From Naegleria gruberi (taxonomy: Eukaryota), in assembly GCA_000004985.1 (NCBI GenBank), contig GG738899.1: DNA of 64,000 nt; one strand, given 5' to 3'. The notes beneath the pieces were generated by a model. It did not search any database, was not told the DNA's origin, and saw only the letters and a program-made list of their open reading frames with translations. The position numbers were made by a program, and so were the translations under genes. How positions within the stretch are numbered: position 1 is the stretch's first letter; each line of letters starts with the position of its first letter. Shown piece after piece: positions 1 through 58,496 of this stretch.

Positions 1-369
1 CGAACCCAAACCCAAACCCAAACCCAAACCCAAACCCAAACCCAAACCCAAACCCAAACCCAAACCCAAACCCAAACCCAAACCCAAACCCAAACCCAAA
101 CCCAAACCCAAACCCAAACCCAAACCCAAACCCAAACCCAAACCCAAACCCAAACCCAACCCAAACCCAAACCCAAACCCAAACCCAAACCCAAACCCAA
201 ACCCAAACCCAAACCCAAACCCAAACCCAAACCCAAACCCAAACCCAAACCCAAACCCAAACCCAAACCCAAACCCAAACCCAAACCCAAACCCAAACCC
301 AAACCCAAACCCAAACCCAAACCCAAACCCAAACCCAAACCCAAACCCAAACCCAAACCCAAACCCAAA
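1..369. repeat. Terminal telomeric repeat array (CCCAAA)n, about 61 units; C-strand on top means a left chromosome end, G-strand TTTGGG
   Basis: Direct reading: near-perfect hexamer cccaaa from position 1, with one variant cccaac near position 159. The array ends at 369 in a T8 run. Confidence 0.9.
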
Positions 370-590
370 CTTTTTTTTCATCGAGTACCTATTATCTCTA
401 GAACCACTTTGAGTTTTTATTAGCATATAACAGTTTGTCGATGAAATTGTACGCTGATTAACATATATAAGATCCAAGTTTTAAATATTGGCCATTAATA
501 AAATGGTAATGGGTTTTCGCCATACCCAAACCCAAACCCAAACCCAAAACCAAGGAGTTTAGATTGGAATGACTCCAAACCCAAACCCAA
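370..590. repeat. Subtelomeric junction element (~150 bp) ending in an inverted GGGTTTT followed by a short interstitial telomere tract (cccaaa x3-4, interrupted); copy 1
   Basis: ttatctctagaaccactttgag ... aatattggccattaataaaatggtaatgggttttcgccata, then cccaaacccaaacccaaaaccaagg ... ccaaacccaaacccaaacc. A homologous copy lies at 9586-9770. Confidence 0.6.
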
Positions 591-826
591 ACCTTTGATT
601 AATTCTAACCGTTCATCCATACGAATATTTGAATAGAAGTTACACGTTCACAGTGAACAGAATTTTATCATTTTTACAATCCAAACGGTTTTTATTGGCG
701 GGAAAAGGGAGCATTCTATTGTTTGAGGGAGCATTGCAAAAAAGCGGCGTGAACTTTTCAACAGATATCTAGATAGAAAGTATATAGTTTTTTTAAAACT
801 TTACTGAAAAACCTTTCCAAAAGCCC

Positions 827-3517
827 NNNNNNNNNNNNNNNNNNNNNNNNNNNNNNNNNNNNNNNNNNNNNNNNNNNNNNNNNNNNNNNNNNNNNNNNNN
901 NNNNNNNNNNNNNNNNNNNNNNNNNNNNNNNNNNNNNNNNNNNNNNNNNNNNNNNNNNNNNNNNNNNNNNNNNNNNNNNNNNNNNNNNNNNNNNNNNNNN
1001 NNNNNNNNNNNNNNNNNNNNNNNNNNNNNNNNNNNNNNNNNNNNNNNNNNNNNNNNNNNNNNNNNNNNNNNNNNNNNNNNNNNNNNNNNNNNNNNNNNNN
1101 NNNNNNNNNNNNNNNNNNNNNNNNNNNNNNNNNNNNNNNNNNNNNNNNNNNNNNNNNNNNNNNNNNNNNNNNNNNNNNNNNNNNNNNNNNNNNNNNNNNN
1201 NNNNNNNNNNNNNNNNNNNNNNNNNNNNNNNNNNNNNNNNNNNNNNNNNNNNNNNNNNNNNNNNNNNNNNNNNNNNNNNNNNNNNNNNNNNNNNNNNNNN
1301 NNNNNNNNNNNNNNNNNNNNNNNNNNNNNNNNNNNNNNNNNNNNNNNNNNNNNNNNNNNNNNNNNNNNNNNNNNNNNNNNNNNNNNNNNNNNNNNNNNNN
1401 NNNNNNNNNNNNNNNNNNNNNNNNNNNNNNNNNNNNNNNNNNNNNNNNNNNNNNNNNNNNNNNNNNNNNNNNNNNNNNNNNNNNNNNNNNNNNNNNNNNN
1501 NNNNNNNNNNNNNNNNNNNNNNNNNNNNNNNNNNNNNNNNNNNNNNNNNNNNNNNNNNNNNNNNNNNNNNNNNNNNNNNNNNNNNNNNNNNNNNNNNNNN
1601 NNNNNNNNNNNNNNNNNNNNNNNNNNNNNNNNNNNNNNNNNNNNNNNNNNNNNNNNNNNNNNNNNNNNNNNNNNNNNNNNNNNNNNNNNNNNNNNNNNNN
1701 NNNNNNNNNNNNNNNNNNNNNNNNNNNNNNNNNNNNNNNNNNNNNNNNNNNNNNNNNNNNNNNNNNNNNNNNNNNNNNNNNNNNNNNNNNNNNNNNNNNN
1801 NNNNNNNNNNNNNNNNNNNNNNNNNNNNNNNNNNNNNNNNNNNNNNNNNNNNNNNNNNNNNNNNNNNNNNNNNNNNNNNNNNNNNNNNNNNNNNNNNNNN
1901 NNNNNNNNNNNNNNNNNNNNNNNNNNNNNNNNNNNNNNNNNNNNNNNNNNNNNNNNNNNNNNNNNNNNNNNNNNNNNNNNNNNNNNNNNNNNNNNNNNNN
2001 NNNNNNNNNNNNNNNNNNNNNNNNNNNNNNNNNNNNNNNNNNNNNNNNNNNNNNNNNNNNNNNNNNNNNNNNNNNNNNNNNNNNNNNNNNNNNNNNNNNN
2101 NNNNNNNNNNNNNNNNNNNNNNNNNNNNNNNNNNNNNNNNNNNNNNNNNNNNNNNNNNNNNNNNNNNNNNNNNNNNNNNNNNNNNNNNNNNNNNNNNNNN
2201 NNNNNNNNNNNNNNNNNNNNNNNNNNNNNNNNNNNNNNNNNNNNNNNNNNNNNNNNNNNNNNNNNNNNNNNNNNNNNNNNNNNNNNNNNNNNNNNNNNNN
2301 NNNNNNNNNNNNNNNNNNNNNNNNNNNNNNNNNNNNNNNNNNNNNNNNNNNNNNNNNNNNNNNNNNNNNNNNNNNNNNNNNNNNNNNNNNNNNNNNNNNN
2401 NNNNNNNNNNNNNNNNNNNNNNNNNNNNNNNNNNNNNNNNNNNNNNNNNNNNNNNNNNNNNNNNNNNNNNNNNNNNNNNNNNNNNNNNNNNNNNNNNNNN
2501 NNNNNNNNNNNNNNNNNNNNNNNNNNNNNNNNNNNNNNNNNNNNNNNNNNNNNNNNNNNNNNNNNNNNNNNNNNNNNNNNNNNNNNNNNNNNNNNNNNNN
2601 NNNNNNNNNNNNNNNNNNNNNNNNNNNNNNNNNNNNNNNNNNNNNNNNNNNNNNNNNNNNNNNNNNNNNNNNNNNNNNNNNNNNNNNNNNNNNNNNNNNN
2701 NNNNNNNNNNNNNNNNNNNNNNNNNNNNNNNNNNNNNNNNNNNNNNNNNNNNNNNNNNNNNNNNNNNNNNNNNNNNNNNNNNNNNNNNNNNNNNNNNNNN
2801 NNNNNNNNNNNNNNNNNNNNNNNNNNNNNNNNNNNNNNNNNNNNNNNNNNNNNNNNNNNNNNNNNNNNNNNNNNNNNNNNNNNNNNNNNNNNNNNNNNNN
2901 NNNNNNNNNNNNNNNNNNNNNNNNNNNNNNNNNNNNNNNNNNNNNNNNNNNNNNNNNNNNNNNNNNNNNNNNNNNNNNNNNNNNNNNNNNNNNNNNNNNN
3001 NNNNNNNNNNNNNNNNNNNNNNNNNNNNNNNNNNNNNNNNNNNNNNNNNNNNNNNNNNNNNNNNNNNNNNNNNNNNNNNNNNNNNNNNNNNNNNNNNNNN
3101 NNNNNNNNNNNNNNNNNNNNNNNNNNNNNNNNNNNNNNNNNNNNNNNNNNNNNNNNNNNNNNNNNNNNNNNNNNNNNNNNNNNNNNNNNNNNNNNNNNNN
3201 NNNNNNNNNNNNNNNNNNNNNNNNNNNNNNNNNNNNNNNNNNNNNNNNNNNNNNNNNNNNNNNNNNNNNNNNNNNNNNNNNNNNNNNNNNNNNNNNNNNN
3301 NNNNNNNNNNNNNNNNNNNNNNNNNNNNNNNNNNNNNNNNNNNNNNNNNNNNNNNNNNNNNNNNNNNNNNNNNNNNNNNNNNNNNNNNNNNNNNNNNNNN
3401 NNNNNNNNNNNNNNNNNNNNNNNNNNNNNNNNNNNNNNNNNNNNNNNNNNNNNNNNNNNNNNNNNNNNNNNNNNNNNNNNNNNNNNNNNNNNNNNNNNNN
3501 NNNNNNNNNNNNNNNNN
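827..3517. other. Assembly gap (run of N, ~2.7 kb)
   Basis: Contiguous n characters. ORF 793..3933 is an artefact of translating the N run and the telomere repeats. Confidence 0.99.
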
Positions 3518-3897
3518 AAACCCAAACCCATTCCCAAACCCAAACCCAAACCCAAACCCAAACGCGAACCCAAACCCAAACCCAAACCCAAACCCAAACC
3601 CAAACCCAAACCCAAACCCAAACCCAAACCCAAACCCAAACCCAAACCCAAACCCAAACCCAAACCCAAACCCAAACCCAAACCCAAACCCAAACCCAAA
3701 CCCAAACCCAAACCCAAACCCAAACCCAAACCCAAACCCAAACCCAAACCCAAACCCAAACCCAAACCCAAACCCAAACCCAAACCCAAACCCAAACCCA
3801 AACCCAAACCCAAACCCAAACCCAAACCCAAACCCAAACCCAAACCCAAACCCAAACCCAAACCCAAACCCAAACCCAAACCCAAACCCAAACCCAG
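3518..3897. repeat. Second (CCCAAA)n telomeric block (~63 units with a few variant units), followed at 3898-3950 by degenerate telomere-like units (aaacccaacc, aaaccctagccc)
   Basis: Direct reading. Variant units: cccattccc at ~3530 and aaacgcgaaccc at ~3563. Same orientation as the terminal array. Confidence 0.85.
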
Positions 3898-4924: not shown

Positions 4925-7070
4925 ATGAAAAGAAATCCCAAAGGGTTCTTGTCATCTGATGATGATGACGAACTTGTGGTGCGTTTGTCTGAAGAGCCTG
5001 TAGAAAATGACGATGACATTGAGTTGCCAAGAGATGATGAAAGTGATTCCGATGATGAACTAGACAGTGCCTTCACATCTATAATGTATGGAAATGATGA
5101 TGATGGTGAAAATATCATTGTGGAAAATCATNNNNNNNNNNNNNNNNNNNNNNNNNNNNNNNNNNNNNNNNNNNNNNNNNNNNNNNNNNNNNNNNNNNNN
5201 NNNNNNNNNNNNNNNNNNNNNNNNNNNNNNNNNNNNNNNNNNNNNNNNNNNNNNNNNNNNNNNNNNNNNNNNNNNNNNNNNNNNNNNNNNNNNNNNNNNN
5301 NNNNNNNNNNNNNNNNNNNNNNNNNNNNNNNNNNNNNNNNNNNNNNNNNNNNNNNNNNNNNNNNNNNNNNNNNNNNNNNNNNNNNNNNNNNNNNNNNNNN
5401 NNNNNNNNNNNNNNNNNNNNNNNNNNNNNNNNNNNNNNNNNNNNNNNNNNNNNNNNNNNNNNNNNNNNNNNNNNNNNNNNNNNNNNNNNNNNNNNNNNNN
5501 NNNNNNNNNNNNNNNNNNNNNNNNNNNNNNNNNNNNNNNNNNNNNNNNNNNNNNNNNNNNNNNNNNNNNNNNNNNNNNNNNNNNNNNNNNNNNNNNNNNN
5601 NNNNNNNNNNNNNNNNNNNNNNNNNNNNNNNNNNNNNNNNNNNNNNNNNNNNNNNNNNNNNNNNNNNNNNNNNNNNNNNNNNNNNNNNNNNNNNNNNNNN
5701 NNNNNNNNNNNNNNNNNNNNNNNNNNNNNNNNNNNNNNNNNNNNNNNNNNNNNNNNNNNNNNNNNNNNNNNNNNNNNNNNNNNNNNNNNNNNNNNNNNNN
5801 NNNNNNNNNNNNNNNNNNNNNNNNNNNNNNTCTGAGGATCCCATTGAGAGGAGATTCGATTTCATTCATTAGATTGAGAGACATTTCTTTCGAAATTGTA
5901 ACAGATGATGAATTAGATGATGGTACATTCACCATTAATTGTAATATGATCATCAGAAAGGAAAAACATATTGGGGAAGATAATGATCGTGAATTCAGAT
6001 TGTATGGTAAGAAGGATCAGAAATACTGTCCTGTATTCAATTTAATTAATTACCTATTTAGAAGAACTCCTAATCCATTTGAAGAATATCAGAAAGGAAT
6101 GAGTTTCAAATCTTTCTTATGCAAGCGAAACTTCAACCTGAATTCAAGTTTGAGTGAACAACCCCTTTTTACTCAAAAAGAATCAAGTAATCCAGCCACC
6201 TCCAAAGATCTTTCAAATTGGTTGAAGAATTCTTCCAGAGACAAATTGGGAATTACTTACTCCATGAGATCATTGAGATCCGGTTGTATAATCTTACTAT
6301 ATGCTACATTATGCATTATCAAAGGAACTCCAACTCTTGAAACAGGAGCATCCATTCCAATTAGAGCAATAGTTGGTCATATGAGAGACGAATCTATCAA
6401 ATTTTATATCAGAAAAGCTGTCACTCTCTGCCATAATTTTACTGACCTACAAGATGGTATCTCCGCAAAGAAATTGGATATTAATGATGTTGAACTTAAT
6501 TATTGTTTGACTATTCAGAAGTGTTGCTCTCATTCTGAATACTTAAAATGTCCTGAGTTTATTTCAAATTATATTAAGAACAATAAGGTTGATAGAAGAA
6601 CTTGGATTCCAAGAGGTAGGCCTCATTCTAATCCAAATTTAAAGAACCAACGCCACAGAGCTGCCACTGATATGAAAAAGTACATAATTGCAAATTATCC
6701 AATGCTAAATCTTGGAGATCCAGCTTTAAAAAGGAAAGATGTAGCATGGGAATCATTCTTTGCAGCATGTGGAACATTCATTACTGAAAATGAATTAGAT
6801 ATTGACCCGTATGCCGATTTATCCAAAGCTCAAAAACGAGATAGAAGAAACAAAATGTCTGCTTTGAAAAAGTGCCTTAATATTCTTTATGATGAAAGAG
6901 ATGATGATTTAAAGACCAAAAGTCAATCTAGATTGGATGAAATCATCGTTGGAGCTGAAGCTAATTGGGAGATTCCACAGAGTGCATATAATCCAAAATC
7001 CAAGAAGAGAAAGGTTGTTGCGGAATCTGAATCTGAATCTGAATCTGAATCTGAATCTGAATCTGAATGA
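4925..7070 (+). mobile_element. Crypton-like tyrosine recombinase gene, interrupted by an N-gap at 5132-5830. Acidic N-terminus, a tyrosine-recombinase catalytic domain, a KKRK nuclear-localisation signal, and an (ES)n tail encoded by (gaatct)8
   Basis: After the gap the ORF reads ...SMRSLRSGCIILLYATLCIIKGTPTLETGASIPIRAIVGHMRDESIKFYIRKA. This aligns motif-by-motif to the Cre/integrase box II region (HxxR...GxSIPxI...G[HW]...Y catalytic tyrosine). Upstream is a candidate box I / beta-hairpin Lys (REFRLYGKKDQKYCPVFNL). No reverse transcriptase or RNase H lies nearby, which argues against a DIRS element. Confidence 0.55.
5132..5830. other. Assembly gap (N run)
   Basis: n characters. All ORFs spanning it (5060..5953, 5128..5865 and the central part of 5088..7070) are artefactual in the X region. 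Confidence 0.99.
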
Positions 7071-7074
7071 CTAA

Positions 7075-7683
7075 NNNNNNNNNNNNNNNNNNNNNNNNNN
7101 NNNNNNNNNNNNNNNNNNNNNNNNNNNNNNNNNNNNNNNNNNNNNNNNNNNNNNNNNNNNNNNNNNNNNNNNNNNNNNNNNNNNNNNNNNNNNNNNNNNN
7201 NNNNNNNNNNNNNNNNNNNNNNNNNNNNNNNNNNNNNNNNNNNNNNNNNNNNNNNNNNNNNNNNNNNNNNNNNNNNNNNNNNNNNNNNNNNNNNNNNNNN
7301 NNNNNNNNNNNNNNNNNNNNNNNNNNNNNNNNNNNNNNNNNNNNNNNNNNNNNNNNNNNNNNNNNNNNNNNNNNNNNNNNNNNNNNNNNNNNNNNNNNNN
7401 NNNNNNNNNNNNNNNNNNNNNNNNNNNNNNNNNNNNNNNNNNNNNNNNNNNNNNNNNNNNNNNNNNNNNNNNNNNNNNNNNNNNNNNNNNNNNNNNNNNN
7501 NNNNNNNNNNNNNNNNNNNNNNNNNNNNNNNNNNNNNNNNNNNNNNNNNNNNNNNNNNNNNNNNNNNNNNNNNNNNNNNNNNNNNNNNNNNNNNNNNNNN
7601 NNNNNNNNNNNNNNNNNNNNNNNNNNNNNNNNNNNNNNNNNNNNNNNNNNNNNNNNNNNNNNNNNNNNNNNNNNNNNNNNNNN
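7075..7683. other. Assembly gap (N run)
   Basis: n characters. ORFs 6923..7690, 7067..7774 and 7071..7787 are artefacts. Confidence 0.99.
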
Positions 7684-50162: not shown

Positions 50163-52274
50163 ATGATCGTTGGTGGCGCCTTAAAAGGTCTCGGAATGAT
50201 TTTTCCCGCCAATTTGGAGCATATCGTAAATGAGGAGAATGAAGAGGAATTTATTTTGATTCGGAAGGGATTTGATAATAGAAAACAAGTTGCTTTAATT
50301 TCTGGTTAGTAACATATTCATTTGTTGGATTTGGATATATAAATTGGTGATACTATTTAATTTTATTATTTGATGATTTGATGAATTTAATTTGATTTTA
50401 ATATTATTGATGGTGATGAACAAATATGAAAAGGAGGAGGATCTGGACATTCACCATCACATGAAGGATTTGTTGCAAAAGGAATGCTCACAGCTGCTGT
50501 TTTGGGAGCTGTTTTTACTTCTCCGAGTGTTTTGCAAATCTTCAAGGCAATCACTGCTGTTACAAGCAGGAGACGAGTTGATGAAGAAGGAAAGGGATGC
50601 TTGTTGATTGTGAAGAATTATACAGGAGATATATTGAATTTTAGATTGGCTAGAGAAATGGCCATTCAAGATGGATATAATGTGGAGATGATTATTGTGG
50701 GAGATGGTATGTTGTTTGAATATATATGTGAAGATTGTAAAGTTTTTGAATGATTAGATGTTACTCATCAGAGAGGAGTTGCTGGAACTGTTTTTATTCA
50801 TAAATTGTGTGGAGCTATGGCTGAGAGAGGTGATTCATTGAGTGAGATTTTTGAGTTTATGAAATCAAAATTAAAAATCACATCGGAACAAGTATTGAAT
50901 AATGGAAATGAATCATTTATTAGGAGTATTGGAATTGGATTGAATAGTATTTCAATGCCAGGTAATTCGGAACCACTCTATGAATTGAGTGACAGCGATC
51001 CTGTCTATGAGCTCGGCTTGGGAATTCATGGAGAGAAGGGCGTTTGCAGACTTACATTTTCTCCAACTAATCCAGTCACTGAAATTTCCAACACAATGAT
51101 TGAACATTTATTACCAAAGGAATTCAGTGCCGAGAATCTCAAATTTGCTCTCATGATTAATAATTTAGGATCTACCACCTTGTTGGAAATGTACAATATT
51201 GCAAGGGTGGTAATTACCTTATTGGAAAATCAAAACATTTCTATTGAGAGAGTGTATGTTGGAACATTCATGACTGCTCTGAATATGCATGGATTCTCTC
51301 TCAGCTTGCTTAATTTAGCTCAAAACTCTGAACAATTATTAGAACTCTTGGACACTCCAACAGAGTCAATGTTTTGGCCAACTAGTTTGAATCTCTCCAA
51401 AAAATCAAACAATTCTTCGAGAACTAGTCACTCAACTGGAGGTATTAAACTGTCCCCTCAAATAGGAATAACAGCCACAACAAAATCCATCATATCTACT
51501 GAGGAAAATTCACAAGTAGAAAAATTCCTCTCACTCACAGGGGTCGTTTGTGATTTTATCTTGACAAGAATTAAAGAATATAATTCTTTGGACAGTGAAG
51601 TTGGAGATGGGGATTGCGGGAGTGCCATTGAAAGGTATGTACAAAATATCACATTATGTAATTATATAATTTATAACTATTTTATATATTTGGAATATTT
51701 TAGAGCTTGTGAATCAATTCAACAACACATCCTCAAAAAACAAGATTTGAAAATGACACTTGCCGAATTGGTTTATCAAATTGGAATTTGTGTTCAAAAT
51801 AGTGGAGGTAGTTCAGGAGCTATTATTTCCATGTTCTTTTTAAGATATTCCAAATCATTGAAAACGAATTCATTCGATCACAAGAAGGCATTCATTGAGG
51901 GAGTGCACGGAATGATGGAATTGGGTGATTCAAAGAAGGGAGACAGAACAATGCTCGATACTCTCATTCCAGTCAGTGAATATTTACAGGAACAAGAAGA
52001 ATCTATCGATGTGGAAACCATTGTTAAAGTTGCAAATGAAGGAATGGATAGTACAAAATCAATGCTTGCCAAAAGGGGTAGATCTCGTTATCTTGGAGAC
52101 AGAGTTTTAGGATTCTTAGATCCTGGTGCACTTTGCATGTTTGATATTGTCAAAATTTGGTCATTGTGGATGTTAGATAAATCACGGGTGGCTAACTCTA
52201 GCGATTTTTTTCGTGAAGTCTCCGACCCACGAGTTTTTTTTGCCACAGTAAATATTACAAGTTGTACTATTTGA
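50163..52274 (+). CDS. Dihydroxyacetone kinase / triokinase (DhaK + DhaL domains), 4 exons. The last 30 codons and the stop codon are supplied by the inserted transposon
   Basis: Exons: 50163-50304, 50434-50706, 50758-51634, 51704-52274. Introns: gttagt...aag, gtatgt...ttag, gtatgt...ttttag. DhaK motifs: KQVALIS|[32 protein letters not shown]...[37 protein letters not shown]|[25 protein letters not shown]. DhaL motifs: [16 protein letters not shown]|ACES...[12 protein letters not shown]...GDRTMLDTL...[21 protein letters not shown]. The native end ...WMLDK is immediately followed, in the uninterrupted flank, by TGA at 57008. Confidence 0.75.
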
Positions 52275-55200
52275 ACCAATATACAATCAATAAATGTTTT
52301 GAAAATGTAAATAATCATATTTAAAGACTAGACTCTATCGTTTACCTGTTGACGAAAAATCTTGGGGTTTTATCAACCCCTAATAAAGAATTTGATGTGT
52401 GCAACAATCATAAAAATAAATATAACCATAAAAGGTATTGAAAAATGACTAACCGAGCTCAAAATCAAATATAACGAGTTTTATTCGAAATACTAATACA
52501 AAAATTGGTAAGTACCTTTCTTCTTACTTCAATAACGAAATGTAAAATTTTGAATTAAATATCTTGAGAGTTGATGATTTGAGAAGGTTGCGGTTCAATT
52601 TCAATTTCCTCAAATAAGCAATTATTGCACCATCTTTCAAATTTAACACATGAATCACAAATAAGAGATCCACAATCATGACATCTACGTACTGACTGAG
52701 TTCTGAAGTGACATGATTCACAGACAAATTGAGGGAAATGAGTGGAACAATTTTTACAAACTCCTTGAAATTCACATAAATTACAAATCTCCACTCCACA
52801 TTGATTACACTCATCAAGTGATTTTGTGTATCCTAAACAAATGTGGCATGGATAAATTGGATAGAAAAGTTCTGTAAAACAATCTATGCAATATAATTGA
52901 TGCCAACATGAATCACAAAACAACCTGAAACAATCACCACACTTATTAATTCCTCTCTCATGTCTACAATAGTTGCAACCTTGTTGTTCACAAATATCTG
53001 GATCACATTTACAAGTATTTGGAAAGCAATATCGTTCATTCTTCTTACAGGAGCATTTAAGGTTTGAGCAACTGGTTGTACAACGGCATCCTGTTACCTT
53101 AGTAAGCTTGGATTCTGAATTTGATTTCTTTCTTTTTTTCTCAATATTTGAGGTTTTAGAGAATTCTTGAATATTCGAAATGGCTGTGTTAACATCATCA
53201 AAAAATTTGTTTAAAATATTAAATAATCCAATTACATCAAAGAATGCACAATGACAATCCGCAACATTTCCCACTTGGAAATGTTCAATTAACATTTCTT
53301 CTTTGAATGCAGTTCTTCCACTACTCTCTTTTTTTGGTAATTTGTGATGTAGATCTTTGTGGCTTTTCATTAATTTCAAGGAATCTACGAAAACTATATT
53401 TTCAAACTTTGATTCTCTTTTCGGATAAAACTCTTTCTTAAATACTTTGAAATCAAGTATCTCACCATTGTGCGCAATTAAGAAAGTTTTCCCTTTAGTA
53501 TTACTAATAAAATCAATAATAAAATCAAGCTCCTTTTCAATGATTGGTTTGTCTCTTACATAATTCAAATTGATTCCAGTAATCTTTGTTGAATGATATG
53601 AAATTGATTTTGTTGGATTTACTAATCCATAAATTGATTCACCTGTTGCCATATTTAAAAAGCAATATTCTGTTATTTTTGGTGGATCATCATTTGTCCA
53701 AAATCCTGTTGTTTCAAAATCAAACAGAATATATTTGTCATCTCCAAAATCATGTTGAAATGGAAGACCCTTATTGTGTGTGTACAAATCATCATTGAAT
53801 AAAATTCTGGAAGCTCGTGGGATTGGTTCTGAAGGTCTAATTTTTTGATCTACTATTGATTTATCAACAGTATTTGTAATAAGTGTTAATAAATTATCAC
53901 TGTCCAATAGGTTGGAAGAATCTGACTGTTTGATTGATTTCAATAAAGCTTCAATCATTGACTGCTTTCCCTCTGAAAATGAATAATTATGAACGTTCAT
54001 TACATGTTTCAAAAATGATTTCAATCTCACAAAAGGTTGATTACATTCTTTACAAAGAATGTAAATATTATTCATGATGTTTTTTGAGTCAATGTTCGGT
54101 GGATTTTTACACATGAATTCTCGTATGAGCATAGTGTTTCTTTGAGGTTCAAATCCTTCTACAGCATCCAATATATAATCGAACATTTCAGTAAAACTAT
54201 TTTCTTTCTCTAATATTTGATCTTCTTCTTCCTCTGTAAGTTTTTTCTTATTCTTCTTCTTATACTTCTTTCTAGTTAATTCCTCATACTCCAATTCCAA
54301 ATCTATTTTTCCATAACAATTCGAATAACTCTCATTTCTCAAAACAAATGGTCCGTCACTTAGTTTTGCTTTTAACACTAACCAAACAGATCTATAACAG
54401 GAACAATAATCCATAAATGTTGGATATCTAATTTTGGATCTAACAATGCTGAAACAATGTTCTACCATTAATGTAGATAAGCTACAAGTACATAGCTCAA
54501 TTGTTGGAAATCTTGTCTTAAGCTCCTTTAAGGATTTTAATGTAATTATAATATGATCAAATAATTCATTATTTAAAGAAATATCGTTTGATTTTTGCCA
54601 TGGATTAATAAATTGAAAAACAGAGTCTAACAGAATCTCTTTTGCTTCCCAACAATAATCATTTTTGAAAATATAATAAATATCCTGCATTAGTTTTAAA
54701 TATTTAGAGACTGTTTGACAAGTAGTATTTTTTGATTTGGCCAAACCATCAATTAAATTAGTTTCTAATAATGCAAATACGGGATCCATAGCCATTTTGT
54801 CAGTAGGATAAATCACAGAATTAGGTAGCCAATCAGTTAAATTTGATTCAGATTTGGCAATCAATAACGTCTCAATTGAAAATGAAATGCCATCTATAGT
54901 CATGGTTTCATTTAGTAATCTATTTCGTAATCGTTTTAGTAGATGAGAGTAATCAAAGAAGTGAACAGTATTGGGAAATATTTTTTGTGTTTGGAAAAAT
55001 GTTAAATTTCCAGTCAATCCATCGCTACTGAAACCTACAACTTGGAAAGAATAATTATTTAACTGAATTCTTTCAAACTGTTCCTTAATCTTTTTTACTT
55101 GATCTTCCAAAAAATCTGCATGACTTGATTTTGTACAACCTGCAAACATTAAAGGGAAAGAAACACTTCCATCAATTGTAGTAGCAAAGAATTGGCAAAT

Positions 55201-56999
55201 GTGAGAAGCAATTTGGGAAGGTACAATTTCTTCTTTAGATTTGTATAGCTGATCAAAATCTTTTTCATTATAATCTGCAAATCCTATAACTTTTCCAGAA
55301 TCTTTAAGAACACATAACCCTCCTCTTATTTCTATTTCATCATATGAAATTATTATATTATTCGTAACTTTCTTTTTCTGTATAGATTTCAATAAAGATT
55401 GCAAATCTAAATCAGAGGTTTGCCCTGTAGATAATTTGGGAAGATAAGATTTCACTGTTGCTAGAGATGGAAGTAATAAATTCACTTCATCAAGGGCTGT
55501 TTGAGAATTCAAAGCTGAGCCATTTCCTTTCAATATTTTCCATATTTTTGATCCACCAAAATATCTTAAAATTAGACACCAATGAATAATAGATTCCTTA
55601 TACTGATATCCTCTTGACTTATTATAATTAGTGATATTTTCCAAAGTATTTTCCATTAATTGGTAGAAAAATTGTTGTTCATGCAGTTTTTCATCTTCAA
55701 TAGCAGCAATCACCAATTTTACAAGTTTGTGATGATGAATTTTGGATAGTTTTTCCTCTAATGAATCCAATTTTTCTTCCCGTCTTGTTAACATAGATTT
55801 TAATTGAGATACTTTCTTTCTTAATTTCTCTATTTGATCTTTTTGTTTGATTAATTTTTCGTCAGAGTTGTTTGATTTAGTGGTTGTCATATGTCGCAAT
55901 TTTTCATATAATTGATAACAATCTGTGCAAACTCCATTCCGATTTAAATTAATATTTCCACATTTCAATGATTTGAAAATGAAATTTCCATTATCATTAA
56001 ATGATACAATTCCTACTTCATTGTTTCGTTTGTCACAAACTTTTCCATCATAATTTAATAAATTCCATACTTTTTCCACAGCAACTCCTTTACATGTAGT
56101 ATTATTATTTTTACAGTTAGCACATGATCGTGTATCAGCATGTTTACATTTCCCCATGCCTTCTTTAATTTCCGAAAATCCTTTTTCTGAATTATATTCA
56201 ACTTTGATCGTTTCATCATTTGCCAATTTTTCAACAAATCTTATTAGCTTCTGATAATGACTGTGACATAAACGTGACGTTTTTTTGTTGATTATTATAT
56301 TATCAGGAACATTTCTTGTGCCAGGCTGTTTACAACAACAACAACTTGTACGTTGTTTTCTTCATGACATTTTTTTGTTTTTTACTCAAAAAAATGTCAT
56401 GAAGACCCAACACAGCCGGAGTTCTTTACCTAGGATGTTCAAGCCAAGTATTATTCTCAAGAAACTAGAACCAATTCATAAATTAAATATTTAATTAGAT
56501 TACTAGTAATAACCCGCCAGGTTCATACAATGAATAAACATTTAAATTTTTTTATTTTTTAACGGAATTAATTTGCTTTGATGAAAATATAATGGAGACT
56601 GTTGGTATGTTTCATGCAAAGTTCCACGTTGGTCAAATAATTATTAACATCAACAAGTAGTAGAAAACAGTAGGTTTTAAATTATTGGATTAGTTTTTTG
56701 ACCAACGTGGAACTTTACATGAACGAGGGCACACTTTGAAGATTATTTTTCTGTGGCTTTATGTTATTCTTGTAATATATCTACAGACTCGGAAAGTTGC
56801 CAAGCAATAAATAAACAATACTAGTACTCATATGTTCAAAAGAATGACAAAGATCAACTTTAGATGTATTATAAATCGATTTAAAAGTTGAAAATTATTT
56901 ATTGATGAGCAACAACAAATTCCAATTTTATTTAAAAACTCGTGGGACACAAATGCTCGATTGCCTGAGCCAAAAATGACCCATAGTTAGCCACCCGTG
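52183..56999 (-). mobile_element. Intact autonomous DNA transposon (P-element-superfamily-like), 4817 bp. Has a 15-bp perfect terminal inverted repeat, ~70-bp imperfect subterminal IRs, and an 8-bp target-site duplication AGATAAAT
   Basis: Left end 52183 reads CACGGGTGGCTAACTctagcgattttttt...CCCACGAGTTTTTTTT. Right end 56999 is the reverse complement: ...AAAAACTCGTGGGacacaaatgctcg...AGTTAGCCACCCGTG. Flanking direct repeats agataaat sit at 52175-52182 and 57000-57007. The ORF track shows a single ORF on the minus strand, 52555-56226. Confidence 0.8.
52555..56226 (-). CDS. Transposase, 1223 aa, intronless. N-terminal Cys/His zinc-binding region, coiled coil, P-element/THAP9-like transposase core, DEDDh 3'-5' exonuclease domain, and C-terminal CXC (tesmin/TSO1-like) plus B-box-like Cys-rich modules
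   Basis: P/THAP9-like core motifs: IISYDEIEIRGGLCV, VVGFSSDGLTGNLTFF, FFDYSHLLKRLRNRLLN. Exonuclease: Exo I YILFDFETTGF...KITEY, Exo II FLIAHNGEILDFKVF, Exo III YHSTKITGI...HFQVGNVADCHCAFFDV (H-x-A-x-x-D). CXC domain: CRCTTSCSNLKCSCKKNERYCFPNTCKC, followed by multiple CxxC...CxxC units (CHICLGY...CNQCGVEICNLCEF...CKNCSTHF). Confidence 0.65.
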   Translation of the reverse strand: MANDETIKVEYNSEKGFSEIKEGMGKCKHADTRSCANCKNNNTTCKGVAVEKVWNLLNYDGKVCDKRNNEVGIVSFNDNGNFIFKSLKCGNINLNRNGVCTDCYQLYEKLRHMTTTKSNNSDEKLIKQKDQIEKLRKKVSQLKSMLTRREEKLDSLEEKLSKIHHHKLVKLVIAAIEDEKLHEQQFFYQLMENTLENITNYNKSRGYQYKESIIHWCLILRYFGGSKIWKILKGNGSALNSQTALDEVNLLLPSLATVKSYLPKLSTGQTSDLDLQSLLKSIQKKKVTNNIIISYDEIEIRGGLCVLKDSGKVIGFADYNEKDFDQLYKSKEEIVPSQIASHICQFFATTIDGSVSFPLMFAGCTKSSHADFLEDQVKKIKEQFERIQLNNYSFQVVGFSSDGLTGNLTFFQTQKIFPNTVHFFDYSHLLKRLRNRLLNETMTIDGISFSIETLLIAKSESNLTDWLPNSVIYPTDKMAMDPVFALLETNLIDGLAKSKNTTCQTVSKYLKLMQDIYYIFKNDYCWEAKEILLDSVFQFINPWQKSNDISLNNELFDHIIITLKSLKELKTRFPTIELCTCSLSTLMVEHCFSIVRSKIRYPTFMDYCSCYRSVWLVLKAKLSDGPFVLRNESYSNCYGKIDLELEYEELTRKKYKKKNKKKLTEEEEDQILEKENSFTEMFDYILDAVEGFEPQRNTMLIREFMCKNPPNIDSKNIMNNIYILCKECNQPFVRLKSFLKHVMNVHNYSFSEGKQSMIEALLKSIKQSDSSNLLDSDNLLTLITNTVDKSIVDQKIRPSEPIPRASRILFNDDLYTHNKGLPFQHDFGDDKYILFDFETTGFWTNDDPPKITEYCFLNMATGESIYGLVNPTKSISYHSTKITGINLNYVRDKPIIEKELDFIIDFISNTKGKTFLIAHNGEILDFKVFKKEFYPKRESKFENIVFVDSLKLMKSHKDLHHKLPKKESSGRTAFKEEMLIEHFQVGNVADCHCAFFDVIGLFNILNKFFDDVNTAISNIQEFSKTSNIEKKRKKSNSESKLTKVTGCRCTTSCSNLKCSCKKNERYCFPNTCKCDPDICEQQGCNYCRHERGINKCGDCFRLFCDSCWHQLYCIDCFTELFYPIYPCHICLGYTKSLDECNQCGVEICNLCEFQGVCKNCSTHFPQFVCESCHFRTQSVRRCHDCGSLICDSCVKFERWCNNCLFEEIEIEPQPSQIINSQDI

Positions 57000-57194
57000 A
57001 GATAAATGATTGAGTTTTGTGAAACAGCTCATCAACGGAAATTGGTTGTATCCAATTAATTTTCAAAAAAGAAATCCATTATCTTACTGTAATCAATTAT
57101 TACAATCTAAAATTGATTACAAGTAGCATCTGATACCAACACCATTATAACCAAACTGTTGAAACTTGACGAAACTTTTTCATCTTTAAAAAAA

Positions 57195-58496
57195 ATGAAA
57201 AGATTCATTGGTGGTTTATTTCTCGTACTAATCTTTGCCACTGTTGCCATGTGTGCCAGCAGTGATGCATTCGACACCTTGAGTGATTACATCTCTCTCG
57301 CAGACTCCCTCAGAGGAGGTGGTTCTTCAGGAGGTGGAGGTGGCAGAGGAGGTGGATCCGGTGGTGGTGGCAGAGGAGGAGGTAGCTCTGGAAGTAGAGG
57401 AGGATCCAGCAGAGGAGGAAGTAGCTCTGGAAGATCAAGCACTGGAGGTAGATCAAGTACTGGTGGTAGATCAAGAAGTACTGGAGGAAGAGTTTCTGGA
57501 CCTGGTCGTTCACCAACTGGACCTTCTAGATCAATTGGTGCAACTAAAGGTGGAAGAGTTGGAGGAAGAGTTGGTGGAAGAGTTTCTGGACCAGGTAGAT
57601 CACCAACTGGACCTGCCAGATCAAGAGTTGGAAGAGTTTCTGGACCAGGACGTGCTCCAACATCTGTTTCCATTCAAAGAAATGCCATTCAAAGTAGAAT
57701 TAATGCTGCATTTGCTGGATTGAGTAAGGTTTCTACCAATCCTGCCTTGTCAGCTGCTCTTTCTAGATATGCCTCAATGAAAGCTGCTTCCTTGAAAGCT
57801 CCTTCAGTAACTAGTGCATTATTCTCCAAGACTCCATTGGGTCCAGTGAGTACTTTCTCAAAGGTCAACCCATCCTTGCCAACCAACAAGTTCACTAAAC
57901 CTGCAACTGTTGCCAATGTTCCTATTCCACAACCTCGTCCTGCCAATTTGGCCAAACCAGCAACTCAAACTGTTGCTGCTACTACCAGTGTCAAGAATCC
58001 AATTAATCCTGCTGGTGTCCAAAGAGTTGCTCGTAGTAAGCAACTTACTGGACCACAAGTAGCTCAAAAAGCAATTAAGGAATTAGCTGCTGCTGGTGTT
58101 ACTTTATCAGCCGATCCAAAACAAAGAATTGCTCAAATTGCTGACCAAATGGCCAACCCAGGATCATTACACAAATGTGCTGGTTATGTTGCTGCTGCTG
58201 TTGAAGCTGCTACAGGAGTCTCTCTCAGCAGACCTGCCTCAGCTGAAGCTAAGGATTACGGAACTACCATGGCCAAGGCTGGAATGAAGTCAATTCCAAA
58301 TAATAGCACTCCACAAATTGGTGATGTCAGAGTGATTGGACCATCTCCAACCAATGCCAAGTACAGTATTGGTCATATGGAGACCTATACTGGACCAAAG
58401 AGTGGATGGGTTTCTGATTATGCTCAAGGAGTATCTGCTGTTGATAATCCAAAGAGTGCTTATCATGGAGCTTCTGTTTCTACCTATCGTTTCTAA
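57195..58496 (+). CDS. Secreted protein: signal peptide, Gly/Ser/Arg-rich repetitive linker, and a C-terminal CHAP-like (Cys/His amidase-peptidase, NlpC/P60-type) domain
   Basis: Signal peptide MKRFIGGLFLVLIFATVAMCASS. Low-complexity GGGSSGGGGGRGGGSGGGGRGGG...GRVSGPGRSPTGPSRS repeats, with an ~100-bp tandem DNA duplication at ~57480-57660. C-terminal domain HKCAGYVAAAVEAATGVSL...AKDYGTTMAKAGMKSIPNNSTPQIGDVRVIG...YSIGHMETYTG has Cys...His spacing and surrounding hydrophobics consistent with the CHAP fold. Confidence 0.45.
   Translation: MKRFIGGLFLVLIFATVAMCASSDAFDTLSDYISLADSLRGGGSSGGGGGRGGGSGGGGRGGGSSGSRGGSSRGGSSSGRSSTGGRSSTGGRSRSTGGRVSGPGRSPTGPSRSIGATKGGRVGGRVGGRVSGPGRSPTGPARSRVGRVSGPGRAPTSVSIQRNAIQSRINAAFAGLSKVSTNPALSAALSRYASMKAASLKAPSVTSALFSKTPLGPVSTFSKVNPSLPTNKFTKPATVANVPIPQPRPANLAKPATQTVAATTSVKNPINPAGVQRVARSKQLTGPQVAQKAIKELAAAGVTLSADPKQRIAQIADQMANPGSLHKCAGYVAAAVEAATGVSLSRPASAEAKDYGTTMAKAGMKSIPNNSTPQIGDVRVIGPSPTNAKYSIGHMETYTGPKSGWVSDYAQGVSAVDNPKSAYHGASVSTYRF

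Follow-up and report, generated by a model that had tools for sequence, protein, structure and literature searches.

A P-superfamily transposon in the stop codon of a dihydroxyacetone kinase gene of Naegleria gruberi

In a stretch of 64,000 nucleotides of Naegleria gruberi contig GG738899.1 (assembly GCA_000004985.1), to which we refer as the window, the dihydroxyacetone kinase gene (DAK) runs directly into a complete DNA transposon. The insertion of this P-superfamily element very probably destroyed the DAK stop codon and opened a transposon-encoded frame of 30 codons. A preliminary description of the window had regarded this site as an example of a transposable element remodelling a coding end, which is supported at the DNA level by the lost stop and the 30-codon frame. 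Stop-codon loss or exonisation at coding ends by transposons is a general and well-documented effect, and the insertion is a new and clean instance of this familiar type of event that is in itself ordinary. As with known stop-removing insertions, the frame enters the element, whose terminal sequence determines the tail; unlike these, the junction is within the stop codon itself, so that every native residue was kept when the stop was lost, and the locus thus offers a neat natural example of such a loss. Of greater interest than the insertion is the family to which the element belongs. The coordinates of all features are compiled in Table 1.

Insertion junctions at the DAK stop codon

At the left junction, the DAK frame reads TGG ATG TTA GAT AAA T/CA CGG GTG GCT AAC, with the T being followed by the terminal inverted repeat (TIR) CACGGGTGGCTAACT. 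At the right junction, the element ends with GTTAGCCACCCGTG (also given as AGTTAGCCACCCGTG), and the octamer AGATAAAT and the sequence GATTGAG follow. The 15-mer CACGGGTGGCTAACT is present in exactly two copies in the window, inverted and at the element ends, with about 0.01 chance matches expected. As such, the octamer is common in this AT-rich DNA (the window has 4 copies versus 7.9 expected), and its assignment as target-site duplication (TSD) therefore rests on the fact that it abuts both TIRs. With perfect 15-bp TIRs and a perfect octamer next to both, the previously proposed insertion with TIRs and an 8-bp TSD is real. Two details of the preliminary description have to be corrected, though. 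It had placed the insertion one codon before the stop, but the junction is inside the stop codon (T/GA), and it had let the sequence past the right TSD end in TGA, but that sequence is GATTGAG, the original stop being composed of the last T of the TSD and the following GA.

When the element and one TSD copy are removed, the reconstructed empty site GGATGTTAGATAAATGATTGAGTT is obtained, which reads GAT AAA TGA at the gene end and translates to IWSLWMLDK-stop. This end agrees with the ends of the orthologues, which terminate with WAKWFSENRK in N. lovaniensis, with WAKWFSGETHCRE in N. fowleri, with FWSKLI in Willaertia, and with VWADLMSH in Acrasis, all within a few residues of the N. gruberi MLDK. 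It also agrees with an alignment of 39 homologues, in which the tail past the conserved DPGA has a length of about 13-33 residues. In N. gruberi, this tail comprises 17 residues when the extension is left aside and 47 when it is included, the latter being the longest of this set. The earlier statement that the gene had ended with MLDK-stop before the insertion is therefore backed by the empty site as well as by the orthologue ends.

The element boundaries could be settled by a second copy, which we found in N. lovaniensis (L002 5087-9706; 45% protein identity to the N. gruberi copy). Its TIRs, CACGGGTGGCCAACT and CACGGGTGGACAACT, share 13-14 of 15 bases with those of N. gruberi, and a separate perfect 8-bp TSD, GATTTTAT, flanks this copy, which resides at a non-homologous locus that is unrelated to DAK. 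From this it follows that the TIR starts with CACGGG, that the TSD comprises 8 bp, and that the family is mobile. A 6-bp TSD with a TCACGGG terminus, which we had considered, was rejected by the boundaries of the N. lovaniensis copy. The DAK locus of N. lovaniensis contains no such element; only DAK is common to the two species within about 8 kb, and there is no alignable orthologous empty site. In a metagenome collection, an exact search gave 0 matches to an empty-site 24-mer, and a degenerate 35-mer that represents the conserved end of the transposon also gave 0 matches. The protein database contained no second N. gruberi DAK sequence.

As the scaffold is a draft that is interrupted by N gaps at several places close to its beginning (827-3517, 5132-5830, and 7075-7683), it was in principle conceivable that a repeat had been wrongly joined to the DAK end during assembly. 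We regard such an artefact as extremely improbable: no gap lies closer than 40 kb to the site, and a false join would neither yield a perfect 8-bp direct repeat that abuts both TIRs nor leave flanks that rejoin into an orthologue-like gene end.

Table 1. Features of the DAK locus and of the inserted element (window positions; residue numbers for transposase parts)
Feature	Position	Strand	Remarks
DAK native coding region	50163..52181	+	exons 50163-50304, 50434-50706, 50758-51634, 51704-52181
Left TSD copy AGATAAAT	52175..52182		last T = first base of original TGA stop
Thirty new codons (TCA...) and new TGA stop (52272-52274)	52182..52274	+	also in P0001
Complete P-superfamily DNA transposon, 4,817 bp	52183..56999	-	TIRs, TSD, intact open reading frame, N. 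lovaniensis homologue
Left TIR CACGGGTGGCTAACT	52183..52197	+	15 bp perfect; imperfect repeat to ~29 nt
Subterminal motif CCCACGAGTTTTT, candidate internal transposase-binding site	52226..52238	+	inverted copy 56934-56946
AATAAA hexamer, possible replacement poly(A) signal (candidate)	52289..52294	+	15 nt past new stop
Transposase gene, 1,200 aa, single exon, intact open reading frame	52555..56157	-	
Transposase: Cys-rich N-terminus	residues ~1-90		
Transposase: coiled coil	residues ~100-141		
Transposase: predicted P-type RNase H/DDE core	residues ~150-680		D273, D379, D402xxH405, E566
Transposase: predicted C2H2 zinc finger	residues ~700-722		
Transposase: predicted DEDDh exonuclease	residues ~800-1010		D813, E815, D902, H969, D974
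Transposase: Cys-rich C-terminal tail (~180 aa)	residues ~1020-1200		very low model confidence
Right TIR, reverse complement of CACGGGTGGCTAACT	56985..56999	-	15 bp perfect
Right TSD copy AGATAAAT	57000..57007		adjoins right TIR
Displaced original DAK stop TGA	57007..57009	+	last TSD T + GA; now 4.8 kb from coding sequence
Former DAK 3' flank and intergenic spacer, ~185 bp	57010..57194	+	up to ATG 57195 of next gene

The kinase and its transposon-encoded tail

DAK is located on the plus strand and consists of four GT-AG exons that give a single open frame when spliced, with AAA (Lys, 52179-52181) as the last native codon. The Pfam families Dak1 (E=1.2e-36) and Dak2 (E=8.3e-31) match the protein, the DhaK and DhaL domains are both complete in one polypeptide, and the spliced model contains the GGGSGH and GDGDxG motifs. 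The sequence thus predicts a two-domain DhaK-DhaL ATP-dependent dihydroxyacetone kinase/triokinase, a protein with thousands of homologues in the protein database. DAK is 100% identical to the N. gruberi predicted protein P0001 and 55% identical to the N. lovaniensis protein, and an AlphaFold model of the annotated protein had a predicted TM-score (pTM) of 0.81. The Dak2 match reaches profile position 170 of 174 and stops 9 residues short of the native terminus. As the match ends before that terminus and so close to the profile end, the DhaL domain is not truncated, and the earlier claim that the stop codon was replaced without damage to this domain holds.

The most plausible course of events would be as follows. 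A P-superfamily cut-and-paste transposon would have integrated at the octamer AGATAAAT, which spanned the last DAK codons and the first base of the stop, and a staggered 8-bp cut with subsequent gap repair would have duplicated the octamer. The duplicated T on the gene side would thereby have come to precede the CA of the TIR, which would account for the observed change of TGA to TCA (Ser) at the DAK stop. If translation follows the DNA, it would run for 30 codons through the TIR and the subterminal sequence up to the TGA at 52272-52274. The DhaK and DhaL catalytic domains are left intact by the insertion. The continuation of the DAK frame into the transposon for 30 residues with a stop at this position, as described before, was confirmed by translation. 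The new tail is encoded by the terminal 92 bases of the transposon, whose 3' end faces DAK, as the transposase gene is on the minus strand. The preliminary description had spoken of a TIR-encoded extension, and this applies to codons 1-5, which are within the perfect TIR, but not to the remainder, which is conserved subterminal transposon sequence. The DAK-facing end is conserved over about 45 bp between N. gruberi, N. lovaniensis, and N. fowleri, and the motif CCCACGAGTTTTT in the subterminal sequence, a putative site of transposase binding, encodes the DPRVF of the extension.

With the insertion, the original stop and the 3' flank were moved 4.8 kb off, and the 3' end of the DAK mRNA would therefore have to form inside the transposon, convergent with the transposase gene. 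The two genes are indeed convergent, with 280 bp between the transposase stop and the new DAK stop. The AATAAA that had been noticed near 52290 is present (Table 1) and may serve as a replacement poly(A) signal; this hexamer is absent from the original 3' flank (57008-57194). We infer that the extended mRNA and protein are made and tolerated, and the age of the insertion and its allele status are likewise matters of inference; the allele, which the preliminary description had called probably polymorphic, may be so.

One could alternatively assume an old and fixed insertion whose tail has come under selection and now serves the kinase, for instance as a motif for localisation or for interactions. 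The apparently sole N. gruberi DAK in the protein database carries the tail, the rest of the gene is intact, and AlphaFold modelled a part of the tail as a helix, all of which would fit this idea. However, no orthologue has a comparable tail, and the sequence of the tail is dictated by conserved transposon-end motifs. Its length is within chance expectation, as a frame would stay open for 30 codons or more with a probability of about 0.08, given the local base composition (the other two frames are open for 22 and 4 codons). Moreover, the model confidence drops from 79 to 44 along the tail, and the element still has its intact open reading frame, TIRs, and TSD. We therefore consider this alternative unlikely and prefer to view the tail, as the model suggests, as a passive appendage rather than a designed module. 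We also considered whether the new C-terminus (SCTI) forms a CaaX-type prenylation motif and rejected this, as the Cys is at position -3 and not at -4.

The C-terminus of the public record P0001 (556 aa) is already the transposon-encoded tail, which means that the final 30 residues of DAK in the reference N. gruberi proteome are transposon sequence. Users of P0001 are advised to trim this tail for alignments, structure work, or enzyme expression. The record also deviates at its other end: it starts at an internal Met (MLTAAVLG) and thus lacks the true N-terminus, and the GT-AG model (window 50163-50706) supplements it with exon 1 and the first part of exon 2, together 64 residues that include the GGGSGH motif of DhaK.

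The transposase and its P-superfamily assignment

The single gene of the element encodes a protein that is 100% identical to an N. gruberi predicted protein record. When 1.84 billion representative proteins were scanned in full with HMMER, 222 relatives were obtained; a separate search of viral contigs gave none. The Pfam family TNP-like_RNaseH_N matched the N. gruberi protein just above threshold (25.8 bits; cut-off 24.6), and it matched 25 of the 42 long relatives with a best E-value of 1.3e-13. Searches against solved structures with the single sequence or with a three-sequence profile returned exonucleases only and no transposase. P transposase was reached only by family profiles, which had 42 or 15 members, and the match of the 42-member profile to 6p5a had an E-value of 2.7e-15.

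The catalytic triad of the Drosophila P-element transposase (DmTNP) is D230/D303/E531, and the signature of the superfamily is D...D...[C/D](2)H...E (PMC8230255). With a core-only profile, the family motifs FDE, SSDG, D-x-x-H, and VENFFS aligned to D230, D303, D(2)H, and E531 of DmTNP, and the N. gruberi counterparts D273, D379, D402/H405, and E566 are either invariant or conserved to at least 90% among the 42 relatives. An AlphaFold model of the transposase that was based on the family alignment had a mean predicted local distance difference test score (pLDDT) of 73 and was confident over residues 150-680. In a Foldseek comparison, the best fold matches in the PDB were 6PE2 and 6P5A, with E-values of about 1e-15 and target-normalised TM-scores (TMt) of 0.63-0.67 over about 500 columns. 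About 185 aa are inserted between D379 and E566, and the model aligns along most of the DmTNP chain. On the basis of the 8-bp TSD, the TIRs, the DDE signature, and the predicted fold, we assign the element to the P superfamily. The hAT superfamily, the other family with 8-bp TSDs, was rejected, as there was no match to a hAT Pfam family and P transposase was the only transposase found in the PDB searches.

As in the Drosophila P element, there are TIRs and an 8-bp TSD, and as in DmTNP (6P5A/6PE2), a large insertion separates the second D from the E of the predicted RNase H-like DDE core, and a coiled coil follows an N-terminal Cys-rich region. The differences are nevertheless considerable. The Naegleria TIRs have 15 perfect (about 29 imperfect) bp versus 31 bp in the P element, the sequences are unrelated, and, unlike the Drosophila element, the Naegleria element has AT-rich target sites and a single-exon gene. 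The sequence identity of the Naegleria transposase to DmTNP is only about 16%, and the Naegleria protein additionally has a predicted C2H2 finger, a predicted DEDDh exonuclease, and a Cys-rich tail of about 180 aa. In comparison to transposases of the THAP9/Pdre2 type, TNP-like_RNaseH_N is again the only transposase Pfam family that is matched, and the signature string is the same (PMC8230255), but matches to THAP, to the TNP-like GTP-binding domain (GBD), and to RNaseH_C are lacking, and the relatives come from protists and metagenomes rather than from animals. No Pfam THAP match was obtained even at E-values up to 1, and the Cys-rich N-terminus was modelled with strands and a helix. The TNP-like GBD family matched none of the 42 relatives (0/42), nor the N. 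gruberi protein.

Some aspects weigh against our interpretation that a P-superfamily insertion removed the DAK stop. With no match to the THAP or GTP-binding-domain Pfam families, the element would not be a canonical P element. In addition, only one copy was detected in N. gruberi by searches at the protein level, and the perfect TSD and TIRs give no date, so that a moderately old insertion could look alike.

Given the intact 1,200-aa transposase, the element appears to be autonomous. Upstream of the transposase start codon, there are a perfect 19-nt inverted repeat with a 9-nt loop (56359-56405) and a 33-nt inverted repeat with 91% complementarity and a 47-nt spacer (56611-56723), both of which are possibly regulatory or binding sites.

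Exonuclease fusion, related copies, and genome context

The Pfam family RNase_T matched residues ~800-1010 of the transposase with 31.9 bits (cut-off 24), and TREX1, the PolC exonuclease, and the epsilon subunit were matched in the PDB by sequence as well as by fold. The Exo motifs D813/E815, D902, and H969/D974 are invariant across the three Naegleria proteins. As in the DEDDh exonucleases TREX1/TREX2 and DnaQ/PolC, all five catalytic residues are present; unlike these enzymes, the predicted Naegleria exonuclease is a domain inside a transposase. The transposase is thus predicted to be fused to a TREX/DnaQ-like DEDDh 3'-5' exonuclease domain.

Such a fusion with a P-type transposase was present in 15 of the 42 long relatives. 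The relatives came from transcriptomes of Soliformovum, Protostelium, and Pompholyxophrys, which are amoebozoan or rotosphaerid organisms, and from metagenome contigs of about 4-5 kb. In the literature, we found no description of a P-type transposase-exonuclease fusion or of this Naegleria element. We tentatively suggest that the fusion proteins could define an undescribed P-superfamily clade with members in Heterolobosea, Amoebozoa, and Rotosphaerida as well as in many environmental contigs; the Naegleria members additionally carry the C2H2 finger and the Cys-rich tail. P-element excision leaves long 3' single-stranded overhangs, and one may speculate that a built-in 3'-5' exonuclease could trim such overhangs at the donor or the target. 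A P-type transposase with a proofreading-type exonuclease could inform how P-like elements process DNA ends.

The N. fowleri copy (L003) is without a 5' part of about 830 bp, and near its 3' end it is split by an inserted retroelement of about 5.2 kb that encodes a reverse transcriptase and RNase H (L003 10088-15326), with the right TIR beyond this insert (L003 15348-15362). The annotated N. fowleri gene is a fusion of unrelated upstream sequence with the transposase, and at least four further fragments of the element are on other contigs.

These copies bear on the question of whether the large open reading frame could be a domesticated host gene that is no longer mobile, with the flanking repeats being relics that are irrelevant to DAK. 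Conservation of the protein in three Naegleria species, its unusual extra domains, and the one detectable copy in N. gruberi could be taken in this sense. However, the N. gruberi and N. lovaniensis copies are at non-homologous loci with conserved TIRs and their own 8-bp TSDs, fragments are found on several N. fowleri contigs, one N. fowleri copy is 5'-truncated and split by a retroelement, and the catalytic residues have been preserved throughout (DDE, D(2)H, and exonuclease), as one would expect of an active element. Domestication therefore is quite improbable, and a mobile element that inserted at DAK is the explanation that we favour.

The transposon sequences of N. lovaniensis and N. fowleri are very similar to each other. 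Between L002 5915-9682 and L003 6329-10087, the DNA identity is 98.5% (55 mismatches in about 3.75 kb), with about 98% identity at the protein level, and as a baseline from a single host gene, the DAK orthologues of the two species have 74% protein identity. This comparison hints at a recent horizontal transfer between the non-pathogenic and the pathogenic species or at a very recent shared invasion, and these copies could reveal whether mobile DNA passes between the free-living and the pathogenic Naegleria.

A gene boundary is also affected in N. lovaniensis, where just 28 bp separate the 3' end of the element from the ATG of a downstream HPS3-like gene (L002 9692-9737). With this short distance, the promoter or 5' untranslated region of the HPS3-like gene must be located within or across the transposon end.

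In Naegleria, the reported content of transposable elements is 0.13-0.28% (bioRxiv 10.64898/2026.06.24.734286), and DNA transposons have been reported to make up 1.25% of N. lovaniensis (PMC6125883). The genome is thus compact and has few transposons, and where genes are only about 185 bp apart, a new insertion can hardly avoid a gene boundary. The product of the gene that follows the former DAK 3' flank (ATG at 57195) has a hydrophobic, signal-like stretch at its N-terminus as well as a region rich in Gly, Ser, and Arg.

A survey from 2013 stated that no information on Naegleria telomeres was then available (PMC3622300). In the window, CCCAAA/AAACCC arrays (TTTGGG on the other strand) with about 61-63 copies each are found at 3-370 and 3518-3896, and the repeat also occurs at 520-553. 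The approximately 61 CCCAAA copies at the start of the window indicate that it is at a scaffold end, and CCCAAA is a candidate for the N. gruberi telomere repeat. A ciliate origin of the DNA, to which this telomere-like C3A3 repeat might have pointed, was rejected, as the genetic code is standard and the proteins have 100% identity to those of N. gruberi. The two arrays flank the N gap at 827-3517, and the internal one may represent a subtelomeric structure or a scaffolding join.

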